This document shows, in pieces, positions 11,835 to 61,373 of a DNA stretch of 61,727 nt. The notes beneath the pieces were generated by a model that saw only the letters and a list, made by a program, of their open reading frames with translations, did not search any database and was not told where the DNA came from. The stretch's first letter is position 1. Each line of letters begins with the position of its first letter. The stretch spans positions 1 through 61,727 of the forward strand of contig DASWAA010000232.1 of NCBI GenBank assembly GCA_036391385.1. Direction: 5' to 3'. The translations under genes and the position numbers were made by a program. The stretch is from Streptosporangiaceae bacterium. Its GTDB lineage: Bacteria > Actinomycetota > Actinomycetes > Streptosporangiales > Streptosporangiaceae.

Positions 11835-12013
11835 CGCAGATCCTCCCTTGCGCGGACCACAGCGCCGTTGCTCGATCCGCTGCGGCAACCGTCCCTGCCG
11901 ACGGCCCGCACTTACCATCTTGACCACTTACCAGTGCGGCTGGCCACCCGGCTGACAGGAGTCGGCGAGGCCAGTCGCCTGACGTCGCCGACCGGCCTCC
12001 CGGGCAGCGGCGC

Positions 12014-12214: not shown

Positions 12215-12230
12215 GCGCGGATCTTAGCGG

Positions 12231-16302: not shown

Positions 16303-16305
16303 CTG

Positions 16306-17868: not shown

Positions 17869-19403
17869 CTCCCTGCCTCCGCCGCCACGCCGTCCGCGAT
17901 GGCGATGCCTTTCGCCTCGGATAGCAGCGGGTGCCCGCGTCGCTGGTCGAGCGCGCCCTCGATCGCGGCGCCAACCCGGTAGAGCCGGTCGTCCGCGAGC
18001 ACCGGCGCCATGATCTGCAGGCCCACCGGCAGGCCGTCCTCCGGGGCAAGGCCGCACGGCACCGACATCGCCGCGTTGCCCGCCAGGTTGCCGGGGATCG
18101 TGCACAGGTCGGCCAGGTACATCGCCATCGGATCGTCGGCTCGCTCGCCGATCGGGAAGGCGGTGGTCGGCGTGGTCGGCGATATCAGCACGTCCGCCTG
18201 GTCGAACGCGGCGGCGAAATCGCGCGCGATCAGCGTGCGGACCTGCTGCGCCTTACCGTAGTAGGCGTCGTAGTAGCCGCTGGACAGCGCGTAGGTGCCG
18301 AGCATGATCCGGCGCTTGACCTCGGCTCCGAAGCCGGCCGCCCTGGTCAGGCTCATCACCTCCTCGGCGCTGGCCACCCCGTCGTCGCCTACCCGCAGCC
18401 CGTAGCGCATCGCGTCGAACCTGGCCAGGTTGGACGAGCACTCACTCGGCGCGATCAGGTAGTAGGCGGGCAGCGCGTAGCTGAAGTGCGGGCAGGACAC
18501 CTCGGTGATCTTGGCGCCCAGCGACTCGAGCAGCTCGACCGCCTCGTTGAACCTGGCGATCACGCCAGGGGCGTAGCCCTCGCCGCCGAGCTCGGTTACC
18601 ACGCCGACCCGCAGCCCAGCCACGTCCGCGTTCCTTGCCGCCGTGACCACGGCAGGCACCGGCGCGTCCAGCGAGGTCGAGTCACACGGGTCGTGCCCGG
18701 AGATCGCCTCGTGCAGCAGCGCCGCGTCGAGCACGGTGCGCGACAGCGGCCCCGGCGTGTCCAGCGACGACGCGAACGCCACCAGCCCGTACCTGGAGGA
18801 CCCGCCGTAGGTCGGCTTGACGCCGACCAGGCCGCAGACAGCGGCCGGCTGGCGGATCGAGCCGCCGGTGTCGGTCCCGATGCCCAGCGGTGCCTGGTAG
18901 GCGGCGACCGCTGCCGCCGAGCCGCCCGACGATCCGCCCGGTACCCGGTTCAGGTCCCATGGGTTGCGGGACGGCCCGAACGCCGAGTTCTCCGTCGAGG
19001 ACCCCATGGCGAACTCGTCCATGTTTGTCTTGCCGAGTATGACCACCCCGGCCGCGCGCAGCCTGGCCGTGACCGTGGCGTCGTACGGCGGCTGCCAGCG
19101 GGCGAGGATCTGCGACCCGCAGGTCGTCGGCATGTCGGTCGTGGTGAAGACATCCTTGAGCGCCAGCGGGACTCCGGCCAGCGGCCCGAGCGGCTCCCCG
19201 GCCGCACGTCTGGCGTCGACCGCACGGGCCGCTGCCAGCGCCTGCTCCTCGGCCACGTGCAGGAACGCCCGGACCTGGACATCGGTCAGGGCGATCCGGT
19301 CAAGATGCGCCCTGGTCAGCTCGACGGAGCTGACCTCGCCGGCAGCGACCGCGGCGGCCATCTGCGCGGCCGTCAGCGTGATCAGCTCGTTGTGACCGGT
19401 CAT
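17865..19403 (-). CDS. gatA: Asp-tRNA(Asn)/Glu-tRNA(Gln) amidotransferase subunit A
   Basis: It has the amidase signature [13 protein letters not shown]...[13 protein letters not shown], and sits between gatC and gatB. Confidence 0.94.
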
Positions 19404-19405
19404 CG

Positions 19406-19702
19406 TCAGTCCTCCGCAAGGATGCGAGGAACCCGGAACCGTCCCTGCTCGGCGGCCGGTGCCTGGGCGAGTGCCAGGTCGGCGCCGAGCGGCGGCACGA
19501 TGACATCCTCGCGGAAGACGTTGGTGAGCTCGGCGACGTGGGTGGTCGGCGGGATGTCGACGGCCGCGACCTCCTGCACCCTGGCCACGGCACCGATGAT
19601 CACGTCGAGCTGCTCGGCGAAGTGCTCGAGCTCGGCGTCACTGAGCGCGAGCCTGGACAGCCTGGCGAGGTGGGCTACCTCATCACGGGTAATGGACACC
19701 AA
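19406..19702 (-). CDS. gatC: Asp-tRNA(Asn)/Glu-tRNA(Gln) amidotransferase subunit C
   Basis: This 98-aa protein reads [36 protein letters not shown]. Its stop lies 2 nt upstream of the gatA start. Confidence 0.9.
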
Positions 19703-19783
19703 GCCATCCTAGAGGCCGCCCGCTAGCCGGACCGAGCGCATTAGGCCTGCCGGCCCGCGCTGCGCCCGCGATCCGGCTCTGGC

Positions 19784-21973
19784 TCACGCTCCCGGTGCCG
19801 CGGCGAGCTCGGTGCCGGACACCGCCTGGACCGGTCCGGAGCCGAGCGGACCGGCACCGATCGGACTTGGCCCGATCTGGCCGGGCCGGTGCAACCGCAC
19901 GGGGGACCCGTGTGCCCGGCGGCGCATGCCCGAGACCGGATCCTGAGCGAGGCGCTCGGTCAGCCACTCCGTGGCCCTGACGGCATCGAGCGGCCTGGCG
20001 AAGTACCAGCCCTGCGCGCCGTCGCAGCCGATCTTGCGCAGCGCCGCGGCGACGGCCTCGGTCTCGACGCCCTCCCCGATCGAGCGGATTCGCAGCGACT
20101 GGGCCAGCCGGACGAGTGACTCGACGGTCGGGGCCCGCTCCGGGCAGTCAGGAAGCCCGCTGACCAGGGAAGGTGCGAGCTTCACCTCACTGACACCCAG
20201 CCTGGTGAGGTGCGCCAGGGAAGAGTAACCGGTACCGAAGTCGTCGAGGCTGATCCCGACGCCTAGCTCGGCGAGCGCCTTAAGCACCTCAGCCGACTGG
20301 CCGGCCCGGCCGGCCAGCACCTGCTCGTCGACATCCAGCCGCAGCGCGCACGGCTTCAGGTCGTGCTTGCGCAGGGCCTGGGTGACCAGGTCGACTATGT
20401 GCAGGCCGAGCAGGTCCCTGGCCGGAAGGTTGACCGACACCTGCACGCACAGCCCGGTGCTCCACCATCTCGCCGCCTGCGCGAGCGCCCTGTCGACGAC
20501 CAGTGAGGTGAGCTCGCTGGTCAGGTGTGACTGCTCGGCCAGGCCGATGAACTCGGACGCCTCGAGCACCCCGCGGCGCGGATGCCGCCAGCGGGCGAGC
20601 GCCTCCATCCCGATCACCTGCTCGTCGGCGAGCAGGATCTTGGGCTGGAAGTGCAGCTCGATCTCGCCGTTGTGGATGGCGCCGCGCAGGTCCCCGAGCA
20701 GCGCGAGCCGCTCGGCGGAGTTACGGTCCGAATCAGCCTGGTACCGCTCGATGCCGGTAAGGCGCTCCTTGGCGACGTACATGGCGACGTCGGCGCGCTG
20801 CATGAGCTGCTCGAAGGTACGGGCGTCGTCGGGGTAGATCGCGATCCCGATGCTGGCCTGTACCCGGAAGGTCATCGTCTCAAGGCCCAGCGGCTCGGCG
20901 AGAGCGGCCCGGAGCCTGGAGGCGACCTCCCTGGCGGCAGCGGCTTCCTTGACGGCCGGGAGCAGCACGGCGAACTCGTCGCCGCCTAGCCGGGCCACGA
21001 CGTCGCCTGGCCGGACGCTGTGCGCGAGCCGGTGCGCCACTACCTGGAGCAGCCGGTCGCCGACGGCATGCCCCAGGGTGTCGTTGACCTGCTTGAGCCC
21101 GGTGCTACGGTCCAGGTCGATCAGCAAGAACCCGACCTTGGCTCCGCTGCTCCCCGCGCTGGCCAGCGCCTCCGCGCTGCGGCGCGCCAGCAGTTTCCTG
21201 TTGAGCAGGCCGGTGAGCTCGTCGTGGCTCGCCTGGTGCTCCCGCTGCACCGAAGTCGCCGCGCTGAAATACAGGGCCGCGAGCGGCAGTGCCAGCAGGG
21301 CGACGATCAGCGCCGACTTTGTCGTCATCACCACCGTGACCAGGGGCGCGGTCCCGAACAACAGCACGTGCGACAGCGCCTGGAAAGCCAGGTGCGTCCG
21401 CACGACGGCCAGGGGCGGCGTCCGGCTAGCGAGCGCGATCGCGCAGGCCACCAGGCTGAAGTTGACCACGAAGTAGGCCACCCCCGCGAGTCCCAGGATC
21501 ACGAGCTTCGCACCGTGCGGCACCCACGGGTCACCGATCTGGGGCCTGACGCCGGCCATCAGCAAGACCCCTTCGGCGGCACCCAGGCTCAGGCTGAGCT
21601 GGGCGGCGTTGAAGGCGACTCGCTGCGCTGAGTTGCGCTGGGCAAGGCCGATGACGACGACCGCAGCGGCGCGCAGCAGGACGGCGACGGGGAACCCCCA
21701 GTACATCAGCGCGGCCACGGTGATGGTCTTCGACACGGCCGCCCCGTCGCAACCGGCTCGCCCGGGAGTCGGGATCCGCCAGATCTCGCCGACGAGGATC
21801 ATCCCTCCGACGACCCAGAACAGCGGCTGGGTCAGGAGCGTCTCAGCGTGATGCATCTGCTGGGCGGTCGCGAGCACCAGGACCGCTCCGGCTGCAGTGA
21901 CCGCGGTCATGAATATCCACGGCGGAGAGCCTGGACGCGGTCCGACATTGCGCATGTCGTTCGGGTTCCTCAT
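19784..21973 (-). CDS. Membrane-bound GGDEF-EAL protein with canonical motifs
   Basis: It has a polytopic N-terminus. Motifs are HDELTGLLNR...RLGGDEFAVLL, EALARWRHP, DDFGTGYSSLAHL, KLAPSLV and EGVETE...GCDGAQGWYFARP. The start was chosen at ATG 21973 (MRNPND); the track ORF starts 18 codons earlier. Confidence 0.88.
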   Translation of the reverse strand: MRNPNDMRNVGPRPGSPPWIFMTAVTAAGAVLVLATAQQMHHAETLLTQPLFWVVGGMILVGEIWRIPTPGRAGCDGAAVSKTITVAALMYWGFPVAVLLRAAAVVVIGLAQRNSAQRVAFNAAQLSLSLGAAEGVLLMAGVRPQIGDPWVPHGAKLVILGLAGVAYFVVNFSLVACAIALASRTPPLAVVRTHLAFQALSHVLLFGTAPLVTVVMTTKSALIVALLALPLAALYFSAATSVQREHQASHDELTGLLNRKLLARRSAEALASAGSSGAKVGFLLIDLDRSTGLKQVNDTLGHAVGDRLLQVVAHRLAHSVRPGDVVARLGGDEFAVLLPAVKEAAAAREVASRLRAALAEPLGLETMTFRVQASIGIAIYPDDARTFEQLMQRADVAMYVAKERLTGIERYQADSDRNSAERLALLGDLRGAIHNGEIELHFQPKILLADEQVIGMEALARWRHPRRGVLEASEFIGLAEQSHLTSELTSLVVDRALAQAARWWSTGLCVQVSVNLPARDLLGLHIVDLVTQALRKHDLKPCALRLDVDEQVLAGRAGQSAEVLKALAELGVGISLDDFGTGYSSLAHLTRLGVSEVKLAPSLVSGLPDCPERAPTVESLVRLAQSLRIRSIGEGVETEAVAAALRKIGCDGAQGWYFARPLDAVRATEWLTERLAQDPVSGMRRRAHGSPVRLHRPGQIGPSPIGAGPLGSGPVQAVSGTELAAAPGA

Positions 21974-46457: not shown

Positions 46458-46758
46458 CCGGCGTGGGCGCCGGCGGCGCCGAAGAATGAACCGGCCCCGG
46501 CCACCGGGTCACTTCGCCGCCGGCGGCGGCACCCTCGGCTAGTCACTGCCACGTGGGCCGAGCAGGCGCCGCCGGCCCCGGTCTCGGCAGCGCCTGCTGG
46601 GCCCTTCGTTCCCGTGACAAGCTTCCCTTCCGGCGAATATTCCTACTAACCTTGTATGTTAGTCGAGAATATAGGAAGATAGCTCGCGGACGGCCTGCCG
46701 GCTGACCTGAGCAGCGGGCAGCCGGCCACGCACGCCAACCCCCTTGCTAGGAGAGCGA

Positions 46759-47877
46759 ATGCGCAAGCTGATGAAGATCGCCGCCAGTGCGGCCGTGCTG
46801 GCAAGCGCCGTGACACTGATCGCGGGCCCGGCCCTGGCCGACCCGGTCAACGGCAGCGGCAGCCCGGTGACGCCAAAGGAGACCGACGTCGTCAGCGTCG
46901 GATCTGACACCAGCGAGTACCTGGTCGACCAGCTGGCGTTCGATTACAACAAGTCGCACTCGACCGGCCCGCGCCTGTACAGCTGGGACGCGGTAAACCC
47001 GGTCACCGGGCTCACCGACAACATCAAGACGAAGTTCGGCTGCACCGCGATCGTGCGGCCGAACGGGGCGACCGCGGGCCTGACAGCCTTCTACGCGAAC
47101 GCGAAGACCAGCGACGGCAAGCACTACTGCATCGACTACGTCCGCTCCGCCCGTGGTCGCAGCTCCACCGACCCGGCGAAGGGGCCGGGCGGGGTGACCT
47201 TCGTCGCCCTGGCCAAGGACGCCATCAGCTACGCGGCCAACGCCACGACCAACGCTCCGCATAACCTGACCACGGCCCAGCTGAACGCGATCTACACCTG
47301 CACCGCCACCGCCTGGAACCAGGTCGGCGGCACGAGCACCGACACCATCCAGGCGTTCCTGCCGCAGACCGGCTCAGGTCTTCGCACGTCCTTCCTCAAG
47401 GCGATCGGCGTCGCAACGCCCGGCTCGTGCGTAAACAGTTCCGTGCAGCAGAACGAGGGGACTGACCCTCAGTTCAAGGGGAACGCCGACGCGCTCGTGC
47501 CCTACTCGGTCGCCAAGTACATCTCACAGCGCTACCACTCCGCCAAGTGCGGCGTGAAGCCGACCGCCACTCAGAACAGGTTCGGCTGCGACGAGCATGG
47601 CGCCTTCATCCTGAACTCCGTCAACGGCACCAAGCCGACGACCGGCACCGGCACCGGCACCACGATCAATCCGCTATTCAGCGCCAAGTTCATCAACGCG
47701 ATCTATGACGTGGTGCGGTGGGCTCAGACCAGGGACAACATCCCGGCCTACCTCGAGCCGTTCTTCGCCTCGGCTTTCGCCACCACCAGGGGCTGGATCT
47801 GCTCGAACACGACCGCCAGGCAGGACCTCATCAACTACGGATTCCTGCCCACGCCCTTCTGCGGCACCGGCTCCTGA
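46759..47877 (+). CDS. Secreted PstS-family (PBP_like_2) substrate-binding protein, Cys-rich, no lipobox
   Basis: ATG 46759 is preceded by AGGAGAG. The signal peptide MRKLMKIAASAAVLASAVTLIAGPALA|DP contains no Cys. PstS-like motifs are VSVGSDTSEYL, NGATAGL, LTTAQLNAIYTCTATAWNQVGG and PQTGSGLRTSF. The mature part has about 10 Cys. Confidence 0.75.
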   Translation: MRKLMKIAASAAVLASAVTLIAGPALADPVNGSGSPVTPKETDVVSVGSDTSEYLVDQLAFDYNKSHSTGPRLYSWDAVNPVTGLTDNIKTKFGCTAIVRPNGATAGLTAFYANAKTSDGKHYCIDYVRSARGRSSTDPAKGPGGVTFVALAKDAISYAANATTNAPHNLTTAQLNAIYTCTATAWNQVGGTSTDTIQAFLPQTGSGLRTSFLKAIGVATPGSCVNSSVQQNEGTDPQFKGNADALVPYSVAKYISQRYHSAKCGVKPTATQNRFGCDEHGAFILNSVNGTKPTTGTGTGTTINPLFSAKFINAIYDVVRWAQTRDNIPAYLEPFFASAFATTRGWICSNTTARQDLINYGFLPTPFCGTGS

Positions 47878-47932
47878 CTACCGCTCCGCCCCGCACACCA
47901 GCCAGCGCAACGAACGCACCGAAGGACACCCC

Positions 47933-48556
47933 ATGCACCTCACCATCGGCCGCCGGGCCCGCCTCACCGTCCTGGGCGCCGGCCTGATCACCGCGGCAGC
48001 GGTCGCACTGTCCGCTACGGGCCCCGCCCTCGCCGACACGACCGACACCGGCGGCACCGCGACCATCACGATCCCCCGCAGCTACATCGTCCATCTCGCG
48101 AAGTCCGGTGTCGTCCTGCTCGCCGGCGCACCATCCACCTCGAGCTACACCGCCGGGCCGGGCAACTTCTCCAGCACCGATGCCTACACGCTGCCTGTCA
48201 CCGGCGGAAACGGCGAGGTAAGCAACTTCTACGGCACCGTCGACCTCGGCGGCACCCTGGTCGTCATCAGCGCCGCTCACAGCCAGACGGCCACTATCAC
48301 CGACCTGAAGATCAACTTCTTCAACGGCACCCTCACCGGAGTCATCGATGGTGCCGCCCGTCCCGTCACCATCGCCTACATCAGCGGCAACCTGTCCTCG
48401 AGCACGGGAACGGGCACCGAGACCTTCACGGCCACGCAGCTCGCCTTCGGCGCCAGGGCCGCCGCCGCGCTCAACACCGCGCTCGGCACCACGGTCTTCG
48501 CCAGGGCGACCAACCTCGGCAGCCTCAGCACCACCTACGACGTCACCGTCAGCTAG
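47933..48556 (+). CDS. Secreted Thr/Gly/Ser-rich protein of unknown function (RR-containing signal peptide)
   Basis: ATG 47933 is preceded by GAAGGA. The signal peptide is MHLTIGRRARLTVLGAGLITAAAVALSATGPALA|D. The mature part looks beta-rich (TITDLKINFFNGTLTGVIDG...VTIAYISG). It has no Cys and no anchor. Confidence 0.65.
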   Translation: MHLTIGRRARLTVLGAGLITAAAVALSATGPALADTTDTGGTATITIPRSYIVHLAKSGVVLLAGAPSTSSYTAGPGNFSSTDAYTLPVTGGNGEVSNFYGTVDLGGTLVVISAAHSQTATITDLKINFFNGTLTGVIDGAARPVTIAYISGNLSSSTGTGTETFTATQLAFGARAAAALNTALGTTVFARATNLGSLSTTYDVTVS

Positions 48557-48588
48557 CACGACCCGCAGGCCAGACAGGGAACGGAGGC

Positions 48589-48621
48589 GCGTCGCGGCTG
48601 GTGTCGTCACCACCGCGACGC
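48589..48621 (+). terminator. Intra-operon stem-loop followed by a T-rich tract (attenuator or mRNA-stabilising hairpin) before pstC
   Basis: GCGTCGCGG (48589..48597) pairs with CCGCGACGC (48613..48621). The stem can extend via GGAGG/CCTCC (48583..48629), and is followed by TGTTTCTC. Confidence 0.45.
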
Positions 48622-48649
48622 TTCCTCCTGTTTCTCGCTCAGATAGCTA

Positions 48650-49663
48650 GTGGTTGGGAACGTGATGTACGCACCAGCAGTGGACCAGGCTGAGCAGGAC
48701 GTGCCGCGCGTCATAGTCGCCGCGGCCACCGCCGGTGACAGGGTCTTCCGCGGCCTGCTCCGCGCAGCCGGCGTCACCGTGCTGGCCATCACGGTCCTGA
48801 TCCTGGTCTTCCTCGTGCTGCGCTCGGTCAGCGCCTTCCAGCGCGCGGGGCTGGGCTTCTTCACGACGCAGAGCTTCTACCCGGAGACCAGCGACCAGTT
48901 CGGCGTCGCGGCGCTGCTGCCCGACTCGGCGATCATCGCTGTAATCGCGCTGGCCGTCGCCCTGCCGGCGGGCGTGGCGATCGCTATCTATATCTCCGAG
49001 TACGCGCCGCCGCGCCTGCGCGGACCGATGATCGCGGTGGTCGACCTCATGGCGGCCATTCCCAGCATCATCTTCGCGCTCTGGGGCCTGTTCTTCCTGA
49101 TGCCGAGGATTCTCGGCACCGACCAGTGGCTGTCGCGCTGGCTCGGCTCGTTCCTGCCGGTCTTCCAGTTCACCAAGGCTCAGACGCCGGCCAACTACGT
49201 GGGAGCGATGTTCATCGCCGGCTCGGTGGTCTCCCTGATGGTGATCCCGATCATCACCTCACTGTCCAGGCAGGTCTTCTCCCAGGCGCCGCAAGGCGAG
49301 CGGGAAGCCGCCTACTCGCTCGGCTCCACCCGGTGGGGCATGATCCGCACCGTCGTGCTGCCTTTCGGCCGGGCGGGCGTGATCGGTGCCAGCATGCTCG
49401 GCCTGGGCCGTGCGCTCGGCGAGACGATCGCCGTCACCTTCATCCTGACGCCGCTGACCTACACGCTGAACCCGCACATCCTCGAAGGCGGCGGTAACTC
49501 GATCACCGCCGAGATCGCGAACTTCGTGACCCAGTACGACTCCAAGGGCGTCGCCGCGCTGCTGGCCGCCGGCCTGGTGCTCTTCGTAGCGACGCTTATC
49601 GTCAACAGCCTGGCCTCGGTCGTGATCAGCCGATCCCGGTCCGGCGCCCTGACCGCGGACTGA
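48650..49663 (+). CDS. pstC: Phosphate ABC transporter permease PstC
   Basis: It has 6 TM segments and the EAA-loop region ...EAAYSLGSTRWGMIRTVVLPFG...GLGRALGETIAVTFIL typical of PstC. The start could be GTG 48650, GTG 48662 or ATG 48665. Confidence 0.88.
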   Translation: MVGNVMYAPAVDQAEQDVPRVIVAAATAGDRVFRGLLRAAGVTVLAITVLILVFLVLRSVSAFQRAGLGFFTTQSFYPETSDQFGVAALLPDSAIIAVIALAVALPAGVAIAIYISEYAPPRLRGPMIAVVDLMAAIPSIIFALWGLFFLMPRILGTDQWLSRWLGSFLPVFQFTKAQTPANYVGAMFIAGSVVSLMVIPIITSLSRQVFSQAPQGEREAAYSLGSTRWGMIRTVVLPFGRAGVIGASMLGLGRALGETIAVTFILTPLTYTLNPHILEGGGNSITAEIANFVTQYDSKGVAALLAAGLVLFVATLIVNSLASVVISRSRSGALTAD

Positions 49664-49667
49664 TCCG

Positions 49668-50828
49668 ATGACACAGCAGACGCGTGTGCTCGTACCCGTA
49701 CGGCCATCGCCTGACCCCGAAAGTGACCAGCTGCCTGCCGAGAGCCGGCTCCGCCTGCGGCGTGCCACTTCCGAGGGGACCGCGACGTTCGCCGGCGCAG
49801 CGGCCGCGGCCCTCGGCCTGGTCTGGCTGATCTACGAGCGCGTGCTGCCCTTCTCCGGTGCGCTCGGCTTCTGGCTGACCTGGTACGTGGTCTTCCTGGT
49901 GCTGTACACGGTCATGGCGCGGCTGCAGTCAGACCGCCTCGCCGCCAGGGACCAGCTGGCGTCGGTTGCGTTCGGCACGGGCGGCGTCGTGGCCTTCCTG
50001 ATCGTCGTCGAGGAGGTCGGCTACACGCTGCTACGAGGATCCGGCGCCGTCTTCCACCTCAACTTCTGGACTCAGGCGATGTCGTTCGCCGGGCCCGACA
50101 GCCCGATGACGATCGGGGGCGTGCTCCATGCGATCGTCGGATCGCTTGAGCAGCTGGGCATGGCCACCACGATTTCCGTGCCGCTCGGGGTGACCACGGC
50201 ACTGTTCCTCTCCGAGATCGGCGGCGGGCTCGCGCGGACCGTCAGGACCATCGTGGAGGCGATGACGGCCCTGCCTGACCTCATCGCCGGCCTGTTCATC
50301 TACGCGTCGCTCGTGCTCAGCCTCGGTGTCGCCAAGAGCGGGTTCTGCGCGTCGGTCGCCATCGCGGTGACGATGATGCCGATCGTCGCGAGGGCGTCTG
50401 AAGTAGTGCTCCGGCTGATACCCGCAACGATCAAGGAGGCGTCCTGCGCACTGGGCGCCAGTCAGTGGCGCACGGTGTGGAACGTGGTGCTGCCCACCGC
50501 CAGGTCCGGCCTGACGACCGCCGTGGTGCTGGCCATGGCACGCGGTATCGGCGAGACCGCTCCGGTGCTGCTCGTGGCCGGTTACACGAAGGAGCTGAAC
50601 CTCAACCTTTTCAGCGGCCCGCAGACCAGCCTGCCGCTGTTCATCTACGACTCCGTGCATGTGCTCGGCACGAATGCCTATGTCGAGCGCGGCTTCGGGA
50701 CCGGCTTCGTCCTGGTCGTGGTGGTGCTCGCGCTGTTCGCGGCTGCGCGCAGGCTCGGCGGCTCGGCGCCCGGCGAGCTCACCAGGCGGCAGCGCCGCAG
50801 ACTAGCCAGAGAGGCAGCCAGCAGATGA
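49668..50828 (+). CDS. pstA: Phosphate ABC transporter permease PstA
   Basis: The sequence contains KEASCALGASQWRTVWNVVLPTARSGLTTAVVLAMARGIGETAPVLLVAGYT, typical of PstA. It follows pstC after 4 nt. Confidence 0.88.
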   Translation: MTQQTRVLVPVRPSPDPESDQLPAESRLRLRRATSEGTATFAGAAAAALGLVWLIYERVLPFSGALGFWLTWYVVFLVLYTVMARLQSDRLAARDQLASVAFGTGGVVAFLIVVEEVGYTLLRGSGAVFHLNFWTQAMSFAGPDSPMTIGGVLHAIVGSLEQLGMATTISVPLGVTTALFLSEIGGGLARTVRTIVEAMTALPDLIAGLFIYASLVLSLGVAKSGFCASVAIAVTMMPIVARASEVVLRLIPATIKEASCALGASQWRTVWNVVLPTARSGLTTAVVLAMARGIGETAPVLLVAGYTKELNLNLFSGPQTSLPLFIYDSVHVLGTNAYVERGFGTGFVLVVVVLALFAAARRLGGSAPGELTRRQRRRLAREAASR

Positions 50829-53203
50829 CCATTGCCCGGATAAGCAGGGCGGTGCCAGCCATCCTCGGCATCGCCGCCATGAGCGCCGGCATCGTGCTGC
50901 TGCCCGCGGTACCCGGATCGATGGCGGCGACGAGTCCGAGCCCGTCGGCGAGCACCAGTCCGTCCTCTAGCCCGACCGGTAATCCGAGCCCGACCGGCAC
51001 CCCGGGCCCGACCCGCTCTCCCGCTCCCAGCGGGTCCCCCAGCCCGAGTCCGACCAGGTCGCACCACAAGGTGCCCGGAGGCACGACCGTGCCGGGGCCG
51101 CGGATGTGGGACCCGGCGCACCAGAGGCTCTTCCCTGGCCACAGCACCGTGACGGTCAGTCAGACCAGCAGCCTGGTGAACGAGATGGTGCACGTCTCGT
51201 GGACTGGCTTCACGCCGAGCAGCGCGGTGCTCTACGACCAGACGGCCACCGACTACCCGGTCATGGTCGTCGAGTGCAATTCCGCCAGGCCCCGGACCTG
51301 GAAGCAGTGCTATGGCGCCGACAACGGCGGCGTGCAGGGCGCCTTTGGCCCGTTCGGGCCGATGAACGCCGCCTATGCGACAACGGCGCCGAACGGCAGC
51401 GGCGAACTCGACATCCAGATCCTCACTCTGGCCGAGAACCAGATGCTCGGCTGCAGCGTGCGCCACCTGTGCTCGCTCGTCGTCGTGCCGAGCCAGGGCG
51501 GCAACACCCTGACCAGCCCGGCCGGCTGCCACGACCACAGCCTCGACGCCGGCGGCACGGACCTTGGCGAGTTCGCCTTCAGCAGCCAGACCGGCTCTTG
51601 CTCGTGGGCGGACCGGATCGTGGTTCCGCTCGCCTTCGCGCCAGCGCCTGCCAACTGCCCGATCAAGAACGCGAGTTTCACCGCGATCGGCTCGCCGATG
51701 CTGGCCAGGGCCATGAACCAGTGGCGCGCCGGGCTCTGCTCCTCCTCCAGCCCGCTGGCCATCACCTACAACTCGGCCCTGAGCGAACCCGAGGCCATCG
51801 CCGCCCTCCCGAGCGGCCTCGGTGACATAGCGCTGACCACCCGGCCGGGCCCGGCCCAGGTCTCGCCGGGCAAGACCTACACCTACGCTCCGGTCGCCGT
51901 CTCGGCGGTGGCGATCGCTTACTGGGTCGACAACCCGGTCACCGGGAAACCAGTCCGCTCGCTCAGGCTCGACCCGCGACTGGTCGCCAAGCTCGTCACG
52001 CAGTCATACAGCTTCGAGAACGAGGGCTGCGGGCATGGCACGCCGCCGAAGACCATCGGCTGCGACGGCGCGGTCGACGGCAACCCCTTCAGCCTGTTCG
52101 ATGACCCTGAATTCCAGAAACTGAACCCGGGAGTCAGGGCACCAGGCGGAAGCGGTGCGGCCTTCCAGGTTCCCACGGTCGTTTCCGGGCACAGCGACCT
52201 CACCTGGGAAACAACGCGGTGGATCGCGGCGAGCAAAGACGGCAACAGCTTCCTCCAGGGTCAGTTCGATCCCTGGGGAATGCACGTCAATACCGACTAC
52301 CTCGGCATGCATTACCCGACGGACGCCTTCACCGGCCAGGATTCCTATCCGGTCATCGCCCACAAGTACAGCCCGGTCTTCCCGCTCAGCATGGTCGCGA
52401 GCTATCAGGCGCAGAACTGGGACCCGGGCACGGACTGGGAGAAGGACCCGTTCGGAAACTTCCCCAGAGACCCGATCGAGGTGCCGGGTGAGCGCGCGCT
52501 GTTCGCCATCCTGGACGAGGGCGACGCGGCGGCCTTCCGGTTCCCGGTGGCCAGGCTGCTCAACAGCAAGGGCCGCTACGTCGCGCCGGACGCGGCGTCG
52601 ATGGCGGCGGCCATCCCGTCCATGGTCACCAGCCCGGCCAGCCACATCACCCAGCAGGTCGACTACGCCAGCCAGAACGCCAGCGCCTACCCGCTGACGA
52701 TGGTCATCTACGCTATGGTCCCGACCAGCGGCGTCAAGCCCGCCAAGGCAGCCTCGATCGCCAGGTTCCTGGACTACGTCGCCGGACCCGGCCAGACCCC
52801 CGGTGCCCGGCCCGGTCAGCTCGCCCCTGGTTACCTGCCGCTCCCGGCGAACCTCAGGGCGCAGACCCGCACCGCGGCCGCCGAGGTGCTGAGCCAGTCA
52901 GGCGGCAGCGCGAATCCGAGCCTGGGGCAGTCCGCCAGCCCAAGCCTGCCGGCCATTCCCAGCACGAGCCCGGCGGCGAGCCCGTCCCCGAGCCGGCTCG
53001 GCCAGGCAATCGTGACGGTCGCGCTGAAGCGGGCGCAGACGGCGGGCCTGATCAGGTACGCGCTCCCCGTCCTGCTCGTCGTCGCAGGCGCCGCCACCCT
53101 CAGCGGAGCCTCGTCTCTCATGCTCGGTGCGGCCGACGCCGCGACGCGGACCCGGCTGCGGCGCCTGCGGCAGATCCGCCTGACCTGGAGGAGAAAGCCA
53201 TGA
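50825..53203 (+). CDS. Large secreted, C-terminally TM-anchored protein: PST-rich linker, Cys-containing beta-domain, degenerate PstS-like domain
   Basis: ATG 50825 overlaps the pstA stop (ATGA). The signal peptide is followed by SPSPSASTSPSSSPTGNPSPTGTPGPT. The PstS-like C-terminal half contains YPLTMVIYAMVPTSG, ARFLDYVAGPGQ and GYLPLPANL, but has VVSGHSDLTWETTRW where RSDGSGTT is expected. The C-terminus is a hydrophobic helix plus TRTRLRRLRQIRLTWRRKP. Confidence 0.75.
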   Translation: MTIARISRAVPAILGIAAMSAGIVLLPAVPGSMAATSPSPSASTSPSSSPTGNPSPTGTPGPTRSPAPSGSPSPSPTRSHHKVPGGTTVPGPRMWDPAHQRLFPGHSTVTVSQTSSLVNEMVHVSWTGFTPSSAVLYDQTATDYPVMVVECNSARPRTWKQCYGADNGGVQGAFGPFGPMNAAYATTAPNGSGELDIQILTLAENQMLGCSVRHLCSLVVVPSQGGNTLTSPAGCHDHSLDAGGTDLGEFAFSSQTGSCSWADRIVVPLAFAPAPANCPIKNASFTAIGSPMLARAMNQWRAGLCSSSSPLAITYNSALSEPEAIAALPSGLGDIALTTRPGPAQVSPGKTYTYAPVAVSAVAIAYWVDNPVTGKPVRSLRLDPRLVAKLVTQSYSFENEGCGHGTPPKTIGCDGAVDGNPFSLFDDPEFQKLNPGVRAPGGSGAAFQVPTVVSGHSDLTWETTRWIAASKDGNSFLQGQFDPWGMHVNTDYLGMHYPTDAFTGQDSYPVIAHKYSPVFPLSMVASYQAQNWDPGTDWEKDPFGNFPRDPIEVPGERALFAILDEGDAAAFRFPVARLLNSKGRYVAPDAASMAAAIPSMVTSPASHITQQVDYASQNASAYPLTMVIYAMVPTSGVKPAKAASIARFLDYVAGPGQTPGARPGQLAPGYLPLPANLRAQTRTAAAEVLSQSGGSANPSLGQSASPSLPAIPSTSPAASPSPSRLGQAIVTVALKRAQTAGLIRYALPVLLVVAGAATLSGASSLMLGAADAATRTRLRRLRQIRLTWRRKP

Positions 53204-54795
53204 TCCCTCGTCTGCTTCGGGCTCGGGCACGAATGGCGGCCGCCACGCTGGTCGCTGTCGGAGCGGTCGCGGCGGCCGCGCCGCCGGCGAGAGCGGTGAG
53301 TTACGTCGCGATCAGCGGCTCTGGCTCGTCCTGGAGCGCGGTAGCGCTCGACCAGTGGCAGCAGGACCTGCGGCCCAGCGGCCTGGTCATCAACTACAAC
53401 CCGGACGGCTCGGCGGCCGGCCGCGGTGACTACATGGCCAACCAGGATGACTTCGCCGCATCGGACCCACCCTTCCGAAACGGCCAGGATCAGCTCGGCG
53501 GAACCGGGGCCGAGCATCCGACCCAGGGTTACTCCTACATACCTGACACCGCCGGCGGCACCGCGTTCATGTACCACATCGATGTCGCCGGAAAGCTGGT
53601 CACGAACCTGCGGCTCTCGGGCCTGACCCTGATGAAGATCTTCACTGGCGCGATCACCAACTGGGACGACCCGGCGATCACCAGGGACTACGGCGCCCAG
53701 CTTCCGAGCCTGCCGATCACGCCGGTGATCAGATCGGACGGATCAGGGGCCACGTTCTTCTTCACGCGCTGGATGGCGCACATGTTCCCGGCGCAGTGGA
53801 ACGCGTTCTGCCAGAAGGTGAAGCCGGGCATCCGCCTGCCCTGCGGCCAGACCGAGTTTTACCCGCTGTTCGGAAACGCCAAGTCCGAGAACGGCTCCAA
53901 CAACGTGGCCACCTACATCACGGCCAGCTACGGAAACGGCTCCATCGGCTATGACGAGTACGCTTATGCTCTGAATTCCCACTATCCGGTCGTTAAGCTG
54001 CTCAACCCGGCCGGCTACTACGTGCTTCCTACCGCATCGAACGTGGCCGTCGCGCTCACCCAGGCGCAGATCAACGAGAACCCGGCCAGCCCTGACTTCC
54101 TCCAGCAGAACCTGGACTCGGTCTACACCTACACCGACCCGCGCTCCTACCCGCTGTCCAGCTACAGCTACCTGATCGTGCCGCGGGCCGGCAGCCACCA
54201 GCCGACAAACTTCACCGCGGCCAAGGGGCGGACACTGAGCACCTTCGTCGACTACCTGCTCTGCTCCGGCCAGCGCGAGGTTGCGGCTCTCGGATACTCG
54301 CCGCTGCCGCTGAACCTGGTCAAGGGCGGCCTCCTGCAGAACTCCAGGATCCCCGGCGCCGTGCCAGGGCCCAGCCCCACGACGCTGGCCGGATGCAGCA
54401 ACCCGACCTTCACGGGCGGCCAGCTCACCCTGCTGACCACGGCCCCGCAGCCCTCACCGTGCGACAAGCTTGGCGAGCCGCTCGACTGTGTGGTCGTCAA
54501 CGGGAAGGCGGCCACTCCGGGCGCCGCCGGAACATCGCCGTCCGCGGACGCCTCACCCGGCGCGGCCTCTCCGTCCGGCGGCGCTATCCCCGCCGGACCG
54601 GTGACCGGTACGTCTGGCCCGTCCGGACCGCAGGCCCCGCTCGCCGTTACTCCGGTCGTCGTGAACGTCGCGGCCAGCGGCCCTAGCAAGCTGGTGCTGA
54701 GCGTGCTGACCGCGCTTGCCATCGTCTGCGCCGTGATACTGCCGCCCGCGCTCGGCGGATGGCTGCGCCGCCGGCGCCGTCAGGGACTGGGCTGA
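53200..54795 (+). CDS. PstS-family substrate-binding protein with C-terminal TM anchor (no lipobox)
   Basis: ATG 53200 overlaps the upstream stop (ATGA) and is preceded by GGAGGAG. Motifs are ISGSGSSWS, PDGSAAGRGDY...DFAASDPPF, IFTGAITNWDDPAI, VIRSDGSGATFFFTRW, SYPLSSYSYLIVP and GYSPLPLNL. It ends in a Pro/Ser/Gly linker, then LVLSVLTALAIVCAVILPPALGGW plus RRRRRQGLG. Confidence 0.8.
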   Translation: MIPRLLRARARMAAATLVAVGAVAAAAPPARAVSYVAISGSGSSWSAVALDQWQQDLRPSGLVINYNPDGSAAGRGDYMANQDDFAASDPPFRNGQDQLGGTGAEHPTQGYSYIPDTAGGTAFMYHIDVAGKLVTNLRLSGLTLMKIFTGAITNWDDPAITRDYGAQLPSLPITPVIRSDGSGATFFFTRWMAHMFPAQWNAFCQKVKPGIRLPCGQTEFYPLFGNAKSENGSNNVATYITASYGNGSIGYDEYAYALNSHYPVVKLLNPAGYYVLPTASNVAVALTQAQINENPASPDFLQQNLDSVYTYTDPRSYPLSSYSYLIVPRAGSHQPTNFTAAKGRTLSTFVDYLLCSGQREVAALGYSPLPLNLVKGGLLQNSRIPGAVPGPSPTTLAGCSNPTFTGGQLTLLTTAPQPSPCDKLGEPLDCVVVNGKAATPGAAGTSPSADASPGAASPSGGAIPAGPVTGTSGPSGPQAPLAVTPVVVNVAASGPSKLVLSVLTALAIVCAVILPPALGGWLRRRRRQGLG

Positions 54796-54800
54796 GCCGC

Positions 54801-55694
54801 GTGTCGGAGATCCAGGTCACGGTAGATCCCAGGGTAGATCCCAGCCCGGTCGCGCTCACCCCGAGCCCTGGCCGCAGGAATGGCGCCAGTTCCTGGCCGC
54901 ACGGGGCTGGAGTCGGGCTGACCCTGCTCGGCGTCTTCCTGCTCGGTTTCCTGGCGTACCTCTATGCCGCCTCAGGCATCCAGGAGGCTCGCGCGCAGTC
55001 GACCGCCTTCGCCACCTTCAGGTATGAGCTTGGCCAGCAGACGGCGCCGCTGGACGCGGTGACGCCTGGCACGCCAGTCGCGCTGCTTGACATCCCGGCG
55101 ATCGGCATCCAGAACATGGTCGTCGTCGAGGGGACCGCTCCGGAGAACCTCACGCTCGGGCCTGGCCACCTGCGTGACTCGCCACTGCCCGGAGAAAGCG
55201 GAGTGTCGGTGATCCTCGGGCGGCGTGCCACCTTCGGCGCGCCGTTCGGCCGGCTGCCCGGGCTGCGCCGTGGTGACAAGATCACGGCGATCACCGGCCA
55301 GGGCAGGGCCTCGTACACGGTCATGGCCATCGGCGACAGCGGACACCTCGTCGAGGACCCGGCACCGAACCGGCTGCTGCTTGTCACCGCCTGCTCGGCG
55401 GCCGTGCCCACCTCGTACTGCTATTTCGATGCCGATCTCACCTCCGCTCCGCAGACCGACCCGGGCGGGCGCCCGCCGATCACGGCTGCCGAAACACCGC
55501 TGAGCGGTGACAGCAGTGCCCTGGTGCTCGCCCTGGTTTGGGGCCTGGCCCTGGTGATCATCTCGGCGGCCGGCACCGTCGCCGCCGCACGCTGGTCGCC
55601 AGGGCTTGCCTACCTGGCCGCTACCCCCCCGGCGCTGGCCGTGCTGTGGAACCTCTATCAGAGCCTCGCGGCGCTGCTGCCGAACGTGTACTGA
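54801..55694 (+). CDS. Sortase-fold membrane protein (class E-like) apparently lacking the catalytic His and Arg
   Basis: GTG 54801 lies 5 nt after the upstream stop. There is an N-terminal TM helix ([21 protein letters not shown]). The sortase-like core reads [30 protein letters not shown]...[32 protein letters not shown]...[10 protein letters not shown]. There are extra C-terminal hydrophobic helices. Confidence 0.65.
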
Positions 55695-55744
55695 CGGACC
55701 GTGACGCTGATGACCGCACCTTCGATCGCAGGGAGAGCGAACCG

Positions 55745-56557
55745 ATGATGCCAGCCAAGTTTCCCGCGGATGTCGACTGCGCACAGCAGCTTTCCGGCCT
55801 GACCGCGCAGGACGTGTCGGCCTGGTTCGGCGACCGCAAGGTGCTCGACCGGGTGTCACTGACCATGAATCCCGGTACGGTCACCGCCTTGATCGGCCCG
55901 TCTGGCTGCGGAAAGTCGACCTTCCTGCGCGTCCTGAACCGGATGCACGAGATGGTCCGCGGTGCCTCGCTCGCTGGCCAGGTGCTGCTCGACAGCACTG
56001 ACATCTACGATCACGCGCAGCGGCCGACCGAGGTCAGGCGGCGGATCGGAATGGTCTTCCAGAAGCCGAACCCGTTCCCCGCGATGTCCGTCTACGACAA
56101 CGTGGCCAGCGGGCTCAAGCTGGCCGGAATCAAGGTCAGCGACAAAGACGGCCTGGTCGAGACCAGCCTGCGCCGAGCAGGGCTGTGGCACGAGGTGCAC
56201 AGGCGACTGCGGGCCCCGGGCGCATCACTATCCGGCGGCCAGCAGCAGCGGCTGTGCATCGCCAGGGCGCTTGCGGTATCGCCCGACGTCCTGCTGATGG
56301 ACGAGCCATGCTCTGCGCTCGACCCGACATCGACGCGGCGGATCGAGGACACCATCGCCGAACTGCGCGATCAGGTCACCATTGTGATCGTCACGCACAA
56401 CATGCAGCAGGCTGCTCGGGTATCGACAGAGTGTGCGTTCTTCCTCGCAACCGAGCAGGCTCCCGGCCACATTGTCGAGGCGGGCCCGACGGAGCAGGTA
56501 TTCGGGGCACCGGCTGACCCGCGGACGGCCGACTACGTGCATGGCAGGTTCGGCTAG
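55745..56557 (+). CDS. pstB: Phosphate ABC transporter ATP-binding protein PstB
   Basis: ATG 55745 is preceded by GGGAGAG. It has the Walker [24 protein letters not shown], the signature [14 protein letters not shown], the Walker [21 protein letters not shown] and the PstB-type C-terminus DYVHGRFG. Confidence 0.93.
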
Positions 56558-60416: not shown

Positions 60417-61373
60417 ATGGAACTGGAGCACTCATTCACTGTCCCGGTCCCCAGGAGCCGGGCGTGGGATGTGCTGCTCGACGTGGAGAGGGTGGCGCCC
60501 TGCATGCCGGGCGCCACCCTCGACTCGGTCGACGGCGACGAGATTCACGGCAGGATCAAGGTCAAGGTCGGCCCGATCAACATGACGTACGCGGGCACCG
60601 CGCGCTTCGTCGAGCGGGACGCCGAAGCTGGCGTGGTGACGCTCGAGGCCTCCGGCAAGGAGACCAAGGGTGCCGGCACCGCGTCGGCCTCGGTCAGGTC
60701 GGTCCTGGAGGACCACGGGAACGAGACTCACGTCAGCGTTAAGACGACGCTGAACGTGACCGGCAAGCCGGCGCAGTTCGGCCGCGGCGTCATGAACGAG
60801 GTCGGCGGCAAGCTGCTCGGCATCTTCGCGACGAACCTCGCCGACCTGCTAGCCACCCTGGAGGAGGGCGAGGCGGCGCCGGCCGAGGCCGCTGCCGCAG
60901 GGGCGGCCACCGCGCCCGAGGCGCTGCTCGACGAGCCGGTCGACGAGCTCAAGCTCCCGGCGAGGGCAACCGCGAGCCTGCACAACGCCGGAATCGGGAC
61001 GCTCGGACAGCTGGCAGTCAAGACCGACGACGAACTGCTGGCGATCGACGGCATCGGGCCGGCCACGATCGTCGACATCAAGGCCAAGCTCGTCGAGCAC
61101 GGCCTGACACCAGGGCAGGCAAGAGCCGACATGGCCGAGGCCGCCGAGGCCGGGATCGCTCCCGCCGGCGCACAAGCAGCGACCGCGAGCACACCAGCCG
61201 CCGGACGCCCGGCCACGGCGCGGGCGGCGGCGCATCAGCTAGAGGACGACGCGATCAACCTGATCAAGGTGGCGGGCATGCCGATGCTCAAGCGAGCGAT
61301 CCCGGTGCTCGCCGGCCTCGCCGCCGCTCTGCTGATCGGCCTGCGCCGCAAGCTACGCCGGCGTAACCGCTGA
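60417..61373 (+). CDS. CoxG-like SRPBCC domain fused to an RNA-polymerase-alpha-CTD-like helix-hairpin-helix domain and a C-terminal membrane anchor
   Basis: The N-terminus MELEHSFTVPVPRSRAWDVLLDVERVAPCMPGA...KVGPINMTYAG...NVTGKPAQFGRGVMNEV is CoxG-type. Residues about 174-230 (PVDELKLPARATASLHNAGIGTLGQLAVKTDDELLAIDGIGPATIVDIKAKLVEHGL) resemble RpoA alpha-CTD. The C-terminus reads AIPVLAGLAAALLIGLRRKLRRRNR. Confidence 0.8.
   Translation: MELEHSFTVPVPRSRAWDVLLDVERVAPCMPGATLDSVDGDEIHGRIKVKVGPINMTYAGTARFVERDAEAGVVTLEASGKETKGAGTASASVRSVLEDHGNETHVSVKTTLNVTGKPAQFGRGVMNEVGGKLLGIFATNLADLLATLEEGEAAPAEAAAAGAATAPEALLDEPVDELKLPARATASLHNAGIGTLGQLAVKTDDELLAIDGIGPATIVDIKAKLVEHGLTPGQARADMAEAAEAGIAPAGAQAATASTPAAGRPATARAAAHQLEDDAINLIKVAGMPMLKRAIPVLAGLAAALLIGLRRKLRRRNR

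Follow-up and report, generated by a model that had tools for sequence, protein, structure and literature searches.

The phosphate-specific transport (Pst) system, the textbook case of high-affinity phosphate import, also provides a central input for bacterial phosphate signalling, and its composition is regarded as fixed, namely, the receptor PstS, the permeases PstC and PstA, and two PstB ATPases (S, C, A, B2). The PstS receptors of mycobacteria are lipoproteins with intact phosphate sites. Among ATP-binding cassette (ABC) importers, membrane-tethered or permease-fused binding domains are represented by GlnPQ, OpuA and archaeal binding proteins anchored by a transmembrane (TM) segment; such tethering is achieved by a lipid, an N-terminal TM segment or direct fusion, and we know of no tethered-receptor ABC importer that uses a separate adaptor, nor of any adaptor derived from a sortase. 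Pseudoenzymes, for example, the iRhom pseudoproteases, can act as membrane scaffolds. The canonical PstSCAB of Escherichia coli, with five subunits, has been resolved by cryo-electron microscopy (9K3S/9K3X; PMC12976172), Mycobacterium tuberculosis has multi-receptor loci with PstS1–3 and two Pst systems (PMC4996455; structures 1PC3 and 4LVQ), and the class E sortases of Actinobacteria are represented by SrtE1 of Streptomyces coelicolor (PMC5148588), PDB entries 5UUS and 5GO5, and SrtE of T. fusca. The present analysis concerns a stretch of 61,727 nucleotides (nt) from a Streptosporangiaceae bacterium (contig DASWAA010000232.1, assembly GCA_036391385.1), hereafter called the window, in which eight co-directional open reading frames (ORFs), g1–g8, were read on the + strand at positions 46759–56557. 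The canonical composition S, C, A, B2 was not found in it: besides PstC, PstA and PstB, three PstS-fold proteins (two of them TM-anchored), a small secreted protein (g2) and a sortase homologue (g7) are encoded. An earlier note on this DNA, made from the sequence alone, described the cluster as a pst operon expanded to eight genes. On balance, we lean towards the view that the locus encodes a distinct paralogous Pst phosphate ABC importer of soil Actinomycetota, with tethered receptors and a non-catalytic adaptor derived from a sortase.

Conservation and Distribution of the Gene Cluster

A scan with g5 over one genome per GTDB species revealed 24 loci, all belonging to the Trebonia clade, in Trebonia kvetii 15TR583, in metagenome-assembled genomes (MAGs) of Trebonia, and in MAGs assigned to 'Streptosporangiaceae' and Actinomycetota (loci in relatives are labelled L001–L035). 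The complete loci of this clade had the same gene order, namely, g1, g2 or a second g1 paralogue, pstC, pstA, g5, g6, g7 and pstB, while the identity of g5 across them fell to 45%. Because 24 genomes, each representing a species, share the genes and their order, the arrangement is not a product of chance. More distant loci were found with a profile of distant g7 relatives, and the neighbourhoods of nine matches were inspected, these being the best-scoring family members on long contigs and not a random sample. Their hosts were Tenggerimyces flavus (Propionibacteriales), Dactylosporangium sp. NPDC005572 (Micromonosporales), an Acidimicrobiales MAG (L029), a Jatrophihabitantaceae MAG and five other actinobacterial contigs. 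The 33 contexts thus cover at least four orders of Actinomycetes and, in addition, the Acidimicrobiales MAG.

In all nine distant loci, genes encoding a g6-like anchored PstS (467–703 amino acids, aa) and a g5-like protein (694–1034 aa) were located directly before the sortase-like gene, and a PstA-type gene preceded this pair, with a PstC-type gene ahead of it in eight of the nine; the PstB gene was found at the front of the cluster or nearby, and pstB was present in every complete locus. According to BLASTP, identity to the corresponding window products was 70–74% for PstB, 47–51% for PstC, 48–51% for PstA, 38–48% for the g6-like proteins, 38–41% for g7 and 28–30% for the g5-like proteins. 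Overlaps of 4 nt were found in both the g6-like/g5-like and the g5-like/sortase-like gene pairs in seven of the nine loci, and the remaining two had one such overlap or none. The invariant core in the 33 contexts is therefore PstCAB with an anchored PstS, a g5-like protein and the putative pseudo-sortase. With regard to the scavenging of polymeric or organic phosphate, raised as a possibility in the earlier note, no conserved hydrolase was found in the cluster.

The earlier note had regarded the accessory proteins as functionally tied to the transporter, and this proposal is strengthened by the conservation of the core in 24 of 24 Trebonia-clade and 9 of 9 distant loci and by the common 4-nt overlaps; the survey of gene neighbourhoods that it suggested placed a sortase-like gene beside pst genes in each of the 33 contexts. 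However, the wedging of these genes between pstA and pstB, described there, is not the defining feature but an order specific to one lineage. The usual order elsewhere is pstB–pstC–pstA–PstS (anchored)–g5-like–sortase-like, whereas in the window clade pstB stands last, g1 stands first, g5 precedes g6, and g2 is added.

Relation to Canonical Pst Systems

Comparison of the translocator components with the NCBIfam equivalog models showed that g3 exceeded the cut-off of the PstC model TIGR02138 (246.6 bits, cut-off 196.45). The scores of g4 against the PstA model TIGR00974 (185 bits, cut-off 193.45) and of g8 against the PstB model TIGR00972 (335.6 bits, cut-off 343.2) were below the cut-offs; TIGR00974 was by far the best match of g4 (residues 102–362, profile positions 8–265 of 272), and g8 was 70–73% identical to PstB of the Tenggerimyces and Dactylosporangium modules.

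Locus L032 contained both an expanded cluster and, on the opposite strand, a canonical pstSCAB with a gene for a PhoB-like response regulator (11220–16028, − strand). Measured from the sortase-like gene at the end of the expanded cluster, the distance is ~1.3 kb to the regulator gene and ~2 kb to the canonical pst genes. The canonical products scored above all NCBIfam equivalog cut-offs (PstS 293.6, PstC 284.7, PstA 286.8 and PstB 383.7 bits), whereas the scores of the expanded cluster were nearly equal to those of the window (PstB 335.8, PstC 247.5, PstA 199.5 and PstS 184.2 bits). A comparison of hydropathy revealed that PstA of the expanded type, in the window and in L032, has an N-terminal extension of 60–100 aa with two extra hydrophobic segments (window 49668–49960; L032 2610–2950), which the canonical PstA of L032 lacks. 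Since L032 carries a canonical pstSCAB next to the expanded cluster and the scores of the latter match those of the window, the expanded system is probably a separate paralogous Pst subfamily and not an enlarged form of the housekeeping operon. A second, canonical pstSCAB, which the earlier note proposed to look for elsewhere in the genome, was thus found in a relative, whereas within the window no Pst genes were found besides the eight-gene cluster.

The Sortase Homologue g7

The product of g7 is predicted to start with a TM helix, to expose a sortase domain on the extracytoplasmic side and to finish in a membrane hairpin of two helices, whose last residues are LLPNVY. Its start is ambiguous: GTG at 54801 gives 297 aa, and the ATG at 54759 used in public gene calls gives 311 aa and overlaps g6 by 37 nt; the first 30 residues lack conservation in the homologues. 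The domain was recognised by the Pfam sortase model (PF04203, 3.6 × 10−13), and all sequence matches in the PDB were sortases, while the class E model NF033747 gave 66.6 bits against a cut-off of 160 and the models of the other classes scored lower still.

At the position of the catalytic His (His120 of SrtA), opposite 'avaGHRvgkGAPF' of class E, g7 has Arg141, which was placed in three ways, namely, by MAFFT alignment with SrtA of Staphylococcus aureus, by phmmer against 5UUS and 5GO5, and by hhalign of the family profile against SrtA. In 139 close homologues, this position was occupied by Arg (137) or Lys (2). A phmmer search over 1.84 billion cluster representatives yielded 220 clusters (50% identity) at E ≤ 1 × 10−30, most of them full length with the C-terminal region included, and the family statistics were based on 133 full-length representatives and, separately, on a further 118 homologues, the window sequence being added to each set. 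Arg or Lys was found at the His position in 123 of 134 representatives (His in 11) and in 113 of 119 sequences of the further set (His in 6). The nucleophile position of the 133 representatives was occupied by Asp (51), Glu (24), Ala (20), Gly (9), Ser (8), Thr (7) and others; Cys was present only in the window sequence among the representatives and in none of the other 118 homologues, and no family member examined combined the catalytic His with Cys. At the position of Arg197 of SrtA, where the alignment is less certain, the window has Asp212, with Asp or Glu in 127 of the 139 close homologues and variable residues across the family. Conserved throughout the family are GPGH, the 'GR..FG.PF' block, the 'RLTLVT' strand and the two C-terminal hydrophobic helices ending in LLPN(L/V/T)x; to our knowledge, real class E sortases lack a C-terminal two-helix hairpin with an LLPN end.

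An AlphaFold2 model of g7 had a predicted local distance difference test score (pLDDT) of 61.6, the alignment being shallow with every sequence at least 66% identical to g7, and it was drawn on for the secondary structure and for a weak test of the fold, not for disulfide or groove geometry. It contained, with low confidence, an N-terminal helix, a beta core and a C-terminal helical hairpin, and its structural matches with E ≤ 1 × 10−3 were sortases only. Judged by its residues, g7 looks like a non-catalytic pseudo-sortase. NCBI labels the pieces of the module separately (PstC, 'phosphate ABC transporter ATP-binding protein', 'PstS family...', and 'hypothetical protein' for g5-like proteins), and the label 'sortase' or 'class E sortase' given there to the g7 family is probably a systematic mis-annotation. 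Surface tethering by a sortase, one of the possibilities raised in the earlier note, is unlikely because the catalytic His, the family Cys and, in g5 and g6, the LPXTG/LAXTG signal are all missing.

Receptors and Their Membrane Anchors

The protein encoded by g6 matched PBP_like_2 (PF12849, 2.7 × 10−32) and PstS (TIGR00975, 2.1 × 10−49) and aligned end to end with the solved PstS structures 8ODS (1.8 × 10−27) and 2Z22, retaining the ligand motifs GSGSS(W), GS, DFAASD and RSDGSGAT. Relative to the ligand residues of E. coli PstS, which we take to be Thr10, Phe11, Ser38, Asp56, Arg135, Ser139, Gly140 and Thr141, g6 has Ser/Trp for Thr10/Phe11, while Ser38, Asp56, Arg135, Asp137, Ser139 and Gly140 are unchanged. 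The protein consists of a signal peptide, the binding domain, a low-complexity linker of ~100 aa, a C-terminal TM helix and an RRRRR tail. The earlier note counted g6 as an extra receptor; g6, with its near-intact phosphate site, is probably the system's own primary receptor.

The structure of g5 was modelled with AlphaFold2 on 72 homologues (pLDDT 75.7, predicted TM-score 0.73). The N-terminal part of the model comprised a signal peptide, a disordered Pro/Ser linker and a Cys-rich Ig-like beta-sandwich (~87–280), and the C-terminal part comprised a PstS fold (~284–690), a disordered linker, a TM helix (~743–766) and an Arg-rich tail. The domain ~284–690 matched PstS structures (Foldseek E 1 × 10−13, target TM-score 0.75–0.82), the top match being PstS3 of M. 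tuberculosis (4LVQ), and was a paralogue of g6 according to BLASTP (26% identity, 7 × 10−12); there was also a partial match to TIGR00975. Structure prediction and Foldseek, suggested in the earlier note for the 792-aa and 297-aa proteins, thus gave a PstS fold for g5, along with sortases only for the weak model of g7. The secreted and anchored character noted for g5 holds (signal peptide, TM helix), and the PstS fold adds to that description. The ligand positions differ from those of g6: 'RSDGSGAT' is replaced by 'VSGHSDLT' (R to V, G to D) and 'DFAASD' by 'GDIALTT'. G289, S290, P291, E321, P322, T338, V452, G455, S457 and D458 are invariant among the 72 homologues, and because the replacing residues are among those invariant positions, the alignment indicates that the site is remodelled rather than decayed. 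The distant g5-like proteins had no Pfam family, save for one weak PBP_like_2 match. Homology of the N-terminal domain to neocarzinostatin-type apoproteins was considered and rejected (E ~5 × 10−3) in favour of a generic Ig-like resemblance.

The remaining secreted proteins are g1 and g2. The former has a signal peptide but neither a lipobox Cys nor an anchor; its score for PstS family 2 (TIGR02136) was 49.1 bits, below the cut-off of 206.6, and it aligned to Clostridium PstS 4Q8R (8 × 10−7) with the phosphate loop 'lPQTGSGLRtsF' where 4Q8R has 'sREDGSGTRdaF', so that the 'RxDGSGTR' feature is missing. The PQTGSGLR variant also occurs in the g1-like products of L025 and L030; a g1-like gene was found with the module in L025, L030, L031 and L034, and proteins with a 'PQxGSGxR' loop are present in several distant clusters. 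The g2 protein has a signal peptide without a lipobox or anchor, no Pfam or NCBIfam match passing the threshold and no PDB sequence match, in agreement with its first description as an unknown secreted protein; its orthologues were found only in the nearest relatives (L001–3, L006, L007 and L017), and no homologue was found among the small proteins of the distant clusters.

At the C-terminus of both g5 and g6, a low-complexity linker leads to a hydrophobic helix, which is followed by an Arg-rich tail, and every complete g5-like and g6-like homologue carries the TM helix and basic tail. Neither LPXTG nor LAXTG was found in g5, g6 or the complete homologues, and the TM helix is not preceded by any conserved pentapeptide; of the elements of a sorting signal, the hydrophobic segment and the basic tail are therefore present, whereas the pentapeptide is missing. 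It should be noted that the TM helix of g5-like proteins starts with (A/V)(L/M)P, for example, 'RYALPVLL', 'RWALPMLL' and 'AWALPIAA' (window 53040–53120; L025, L027, L029–L034), and the TM helices of g6-like proteins end in xP(A/P/V)LL followed by Arg runs. These motifs may be sorting-signal vestiges or recognition motifs.

Gene Map, Upstream Region and Flanking Genes

The features are summarised in Table 1. The genes and their coordinates were as given in the earlier note, and the reading of the junctions confirmed its two ATGA overlaps (g4/g5 at 50825–50828 and g5/g6 at 53200–53203), which speak for translational coupling, and the 5-nt gap between g6 and g7; g3 and g4 are separated by 4 nt, and the remaining gaps are 55, 93 and 50 nt. 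The profile searches that it proposed agreed with its family labels (PstS-like for g1 and g6, PstC, PstA, sortase and PstB), with Pfam and NCBIfam assigning a family to all products but g2 and only partially to g5. The window has a G+C content of ~70%, and the G+C content at third codon positions is 0.84–0.92 in all eight genes, corresponding to actinobacterial codon bias. The upstream flank encodes a saccharopine dehydrogenase, an aldehyde dehydrogenase and a PIG-L deacetylase, and the downstream flank encodes a CoxSLM-type molybdenum dehydrogenase. Since both flanks belong to unrelated metabolism, the unit is delimited as 46759–56557, with a 300-nt intergenic region 5' of it.

Table 1. Features of the eight-gene cluster and its upstream region in the window.
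Feature	Position	Strand	Evidence
Upstream intergenic region, putative promoter	46458..46758	+	Consensus match only
g1, secreted unanchored divergent PstS-family-2 binding protein, 372 aa	46759..47877	+	PF12849 2.4e-9
g2, small secreted protein, 207 aa	47933..48556	+	No recognisable family
GC-rich intercistronic RNA hairpin, g2–pstC gap	48578..48634	+	Minimum free energy −48.5 kcal/mol, z = −3.2
g3, PstC-type permease, 337 aa	48650..49663	+	TIGR02138 246.6 bits
g4, PstA-type permease with N-terminal extension, 386 aa	49668..50828	+	TIGR00974 185 bits
g5, Ig-like domain, degenerate PstS fold and TM anchor, 792 aa	50825..53203	+	AlphaFold2, Foldseek, BLASTP
g6, TM-anchored PstS phosphate-binding protein, 531 aa	53200..54795	+	PF12849 2.7e-32, TIGR00975 2.1e-49
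g7, putative sortase-fold pseudoenzyme, 297 aa (alternative start 54759)	54801..55694	+	PF04203 3.6e-13
g8, PstB-type ATPase, 270 aa	55745..56557	+	TIGR00972 335.6 bits

Upstream of g1, a sigma-70-like match was found at 46614–46641 (GTGACA, 16-nt spacer, AATATT), together with an AT-rich stretch at ~46625–46680. In the relatives L001–L003, L006–L008, L011, L017 and L023, a conserved element located ~120–200 nt upstream of the first binding-protein gene reads 'GTT(A/C)ACCAAGAAATCACATACCCGCC...CGTTCCCTTGTCGC', with 11-nt-phased GTTCACC-like repeats that we take to resemble the PHO boxes of Streptomyces. The window retains only the promoter-proximal 'CGTTCCCGTGAC' of this element (~46603–46619) and has the AT-rich stretch instead of the rest. 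Hairpins of like strength and unrelated sequence were found at the position of the g2–pstC hairpin in L001, L003, L006, L011, L016 and L020, and a scan of the operon against Rfam found nothing. By analogy with other ABC operons, the hairpin could act inside the operon as an attenuator or stabiliser, so that more binding protein is made relative to the membrane components.

Several observations concern the neighbouring genes. In the window, a gene at 60417–61373, located 3' of the CoxSLM-type dehydrogenase genes, encodes an unusual fusion of a CoxG domain with a helix-hairpin-helix resembling the C-terminal domain of the RNA-polymerase alpha subunit (PF06240 + PF03118). In L027, L029, L030, L031, L033, L034 and L035, the module adjoins genes for Big_3_5 Ig-repeat and/or WxLIP_PGBD-like proteins (L027 1–2540; L029 1–602; L030 12549–19801; L031 12629–19846; L033 1–1303; L034 9927–18795; L035 1–1942). 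The WxLIP_PGBD-like proteins have a C-terminal TM helix, one Big_3_5 protein ends in LASTG, a TM segment and RRRR, and one member of a recurring family of 200–295 aa near the module ends in LPRTG, a TM segment and RRRRK. Such genuine signals were seen in unrelated neighbour genes of L027 and L030, where sortase substrates adjoin an apparently dead sortase; no Big_3_5 or WxLIP-like surface genes were found in the window flanks, L025 or L032. Small cytoplasmic proteins are encoded upstream of or within the clusters of L025 (2855–3193), L030 (1373–2271), L031 (2910–3488) and L034 (1429–1965); one has a faint DUF1508 match, several share 'WRL(V/I)AANNR', and none was seen in the window. In L029, the region 3' of the module (11720–20868) resembles a hotspot of mobile elements, since it encodes an IS66 transposase, a DDE_3 transposase, three tyrosine recombinases and two reverse transcriptases.

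Proposed Mechanism and Alternative Explanations

For the importer outlined above, we infer phosphate as the substrate, an adaptor role of g7, a role of g5 in the complex and co-transcription of the genes. PstC (g3), PstA (g4) and PstB (g8) would form the translocator, to which g6 would deliver phosphate as the receptor, held by its ~100-residue linker and C-terminal TM helix rather than by a lipid. The g5 protein could be a receptor for another ligand or a docking or scaffold platform for the soluble g1 and g2. Descended from a class-E-type sortase, g7 would cleave nothing and would act as a membrane adaptor, its domain, its C-terminal hairpin or both holding the sorting-signal-like C-termini of g5 and g6, and it would keep the receptors beside PstCA, perhaps at the two extra N-terminal helices of PstA. 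In addition, g1 (with g2 in the window clade) would provide soluble secreted binding proteins, maybe in excess owing to the hairpin upstream of pstC. The C-terminal regions of both g5 and g6 are tripartite, and the g5 TM helix carries a conserved (A/V)(L/M)P on its outer side; together, these features suggest that an ancestral set of sortase and substrates was frozen into a non-covalent complex. A bolder form of this proposal is offered tentatively, as a possibility that we consider rather less than even: sortases would have their first non-catalytic lineage in the g7 family, and ABC importers would have a subunit of a new kind, whose former substrate groove and new membrane hairpin grip vestigial sorting signals for multi-receptor phosphate capture on PstCA. 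If this were true, a sortase–substrate pair would have turned into a permanent complex, widespread in soil Actinomycetota where phosphate is scarce.

Several points weigh against the proposed paralogous phosphate importer. No PHO box was recognisable upstream of the cluster in the window, where GKTCAYY matched loosely at two or three sites and the background was 2.3 matches per kb. The g6 score for TIGR00975 was 168.3 bits, below the equivalog cut-off of 205, and g6 has Ala at the position of Thr141 of E. coli PstS; moreover, because the sites of g1 and g5 are altered, the system may in nature bind something other than orthophosphate, or something in addition to it. The window g7 keeps Cys198, in a TLxTC-like 'LVTAC', and since Cys is retained at the nucleophile position, g7 of the window clade may have residual or altered chemistry. 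In the 139 close homologues, Cys198 co-varies perfectly with Cys207, nine residues further on (both Cys in 127, neither in 12), and because of this co-variation we propose that the two form a disulfide and that Cys198 is not a lone nucleophile. Since the g7 model is poor (pLDDT 61.6), it is the co-variation alone that argues for this bond.

To another explanation we assign a minor but real share of probability, namely, that the locus is a Pst-derived ABC system for another ligand (phosphite, arsenate, organophosphate, phosphonate or metal-phosphate) or a phosphate sensor whose specificity is set by several PstS-fold proteins. The scores of the core components are near the cut-offs of the Pst equivalog models or below them, in contrast to those of the canonical copy that coexists with the system in L032, and in g1 and g5 key phosphate ligands are replaced by residues conserved within their own families. 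However, almost all residues of the PstS ligand set are retained in g6, the ATPase is strongly conserved and PstB-like, and no gene of phosphonate, phosphite or arsenate metabolism was conserved in the neighbourhoods. It is improbable that g5–g7 constitute a cell-surface or adhesion apparatus, with the Big_3_5 and WxLIP-like proteins, that merely shares a Pst operon. The module does adjoin Big_3_5/WxLIP_PGBD-like genes in seven distant loci, with LPXTG/LAXTG proteins in L027 and L030, yet these surface genes are not in the window, L025 or L032, whereas the permease genes, the anchored PstS, the g5-like protein and the putative pseudo-sortase always occur together and pstB is in every complete locus. 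The start–stop overlaps join the permease genes to g5 and g6, and a bona fide PstS-type receptor such as g6 is sensible only with a Pst translocator.

The retained Cys of the window leads to the question of whether g7 could be an active dedicated sortase of unusual specificity that cleaves non-canonical sorting signals in g5 and g6 and links the two covalently to the cell wall for phosphate capture at the surface. Dedicated sortase–substrate gene pairs are common, g7 has a sortase domain with Cys in a TLxTC-like strand, and the hydrophobic segments and positive tails of g5 and g6 are typical of sorting signals. Nevertheless, every close homologue and most family members have Arg or Lys in place of the catalytic His, the window clade has Asp or Glu where SrtA has Arg197, the Cys and a second one co-vary in a disulfide-like manner, and outside the window clade the nucleophile Cys is missing in all sequences examined while the operon association persists. 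In addition, no LPXTG/LAXTG-like pentapeptide is conserved before the TM helix, and a wall-linked PstS could not dock on PstCA. On the catalytic-residue statistics and the missing pentapeptide, an active sortase anchoring g5 and g6 was rejected as a candidate, and we regard it as very improbable. Hardly any credence is given to an ordinary housekeeping pstSCAB with chance insertions of no functional meaning: the gene content of pst operons does vary among bacteria, but the same homologous accessory genes were found in 33 of 33 contexts from at least five orders, their association holds at identities down to 28% (g5) and 38% (g7), and the associated Pst genes form their own lower-scoring subfamily.

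If a conserved second type of Pst system holds, ABC importers can recruit dedicated extra membrane subunits; for the sortase superfamily, a branch of ~220 clusters (50% identity) would be the first that is apparently non-enzymatic. The host organisms, namely, Trebonia with its relatives, Dactylosporangium, Tenggerimyces and Acidimicrobiia, live in soil, and most reports of Trebonia come from acid soils; for this reason, the system may bear on phosphorus acquisition where phosphate is poorly available. The cultured carriers T. kvetii 15TR583, T. flavus and Dactylosporangium sp. NPDC005572 make it testable.

Comparison with Known Systems

No description of a sortase homologue in pst operons, of a Cys-less sortase family or of a C-terminally anchored PstS was found in open-access full text, and the novelty suggested in the earlier note thus agrees with the open-access literature and public annotations. 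The five sortase candidates of Actinoplanes missouriensis described in the literature are ordinary class E and F enzymes. The class E sortases resemble g7 most closely, with the best sequence matches, an N-terminal TM anchor, 'GPGH', 'PG..G', the 'G(H/R)R..G.PF' block and the 'LxLVT' strand. In contrast to them, g7 has Arg or Lys for the catalytic His, its family is without Cys, the catalytic Arg is not conserved, a C-terminal two-helix hairpin with an LLPN end is added, and the operon encodes no LAXTG substrates. The role proposed for g7 recalls that of iRhom, in which active-site residues are lost while client binding and membrane segments are kept, although fold and biology are unrelated and a scaffold role of g7 is suggested only by its features. 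The g7 family is possibly a new kind of ABC-importer accessory subunit. As in importers of the GlnPQ and OpuA type, receptors, sometimes several, would be held at the membrane beside the translocator.

The Pst loci of M. tuberculosis share with the window locus the presence of more than one PstS-fold protein and, with actinobacterial genomes such as that of L032, more than one Pst system per genome; however, none of the mycobacterial PstS proteins is known to have a C-terminal TM anchor, an Ig-like N-terminal domain or an accompanying sortase homologue. Canonical PstSCAB has in common with the cluster PstC, PstA, PstB and a PstS-fold receptor with phosphate-ligand motifs, whereas its single PstS is soluble or a lipoprotein; here, a C-terminal TM helix anchors the receptor, and PstA is extended at its N-terminus by two hydrophobic segments. 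A g1-like soluble protein is added in the window clade and in several distant loci, the scores of the expanded core lie near the equivalog cut-offs or under them, and both systems are present in one relative. The difference from canonical PstSCAB that recurs throughout is the degenerate PstS-fold protein of 700–1000 aa and the putative pseudo-sortase, which were always co-encoded with the expanded core (33 of 33 contexts).

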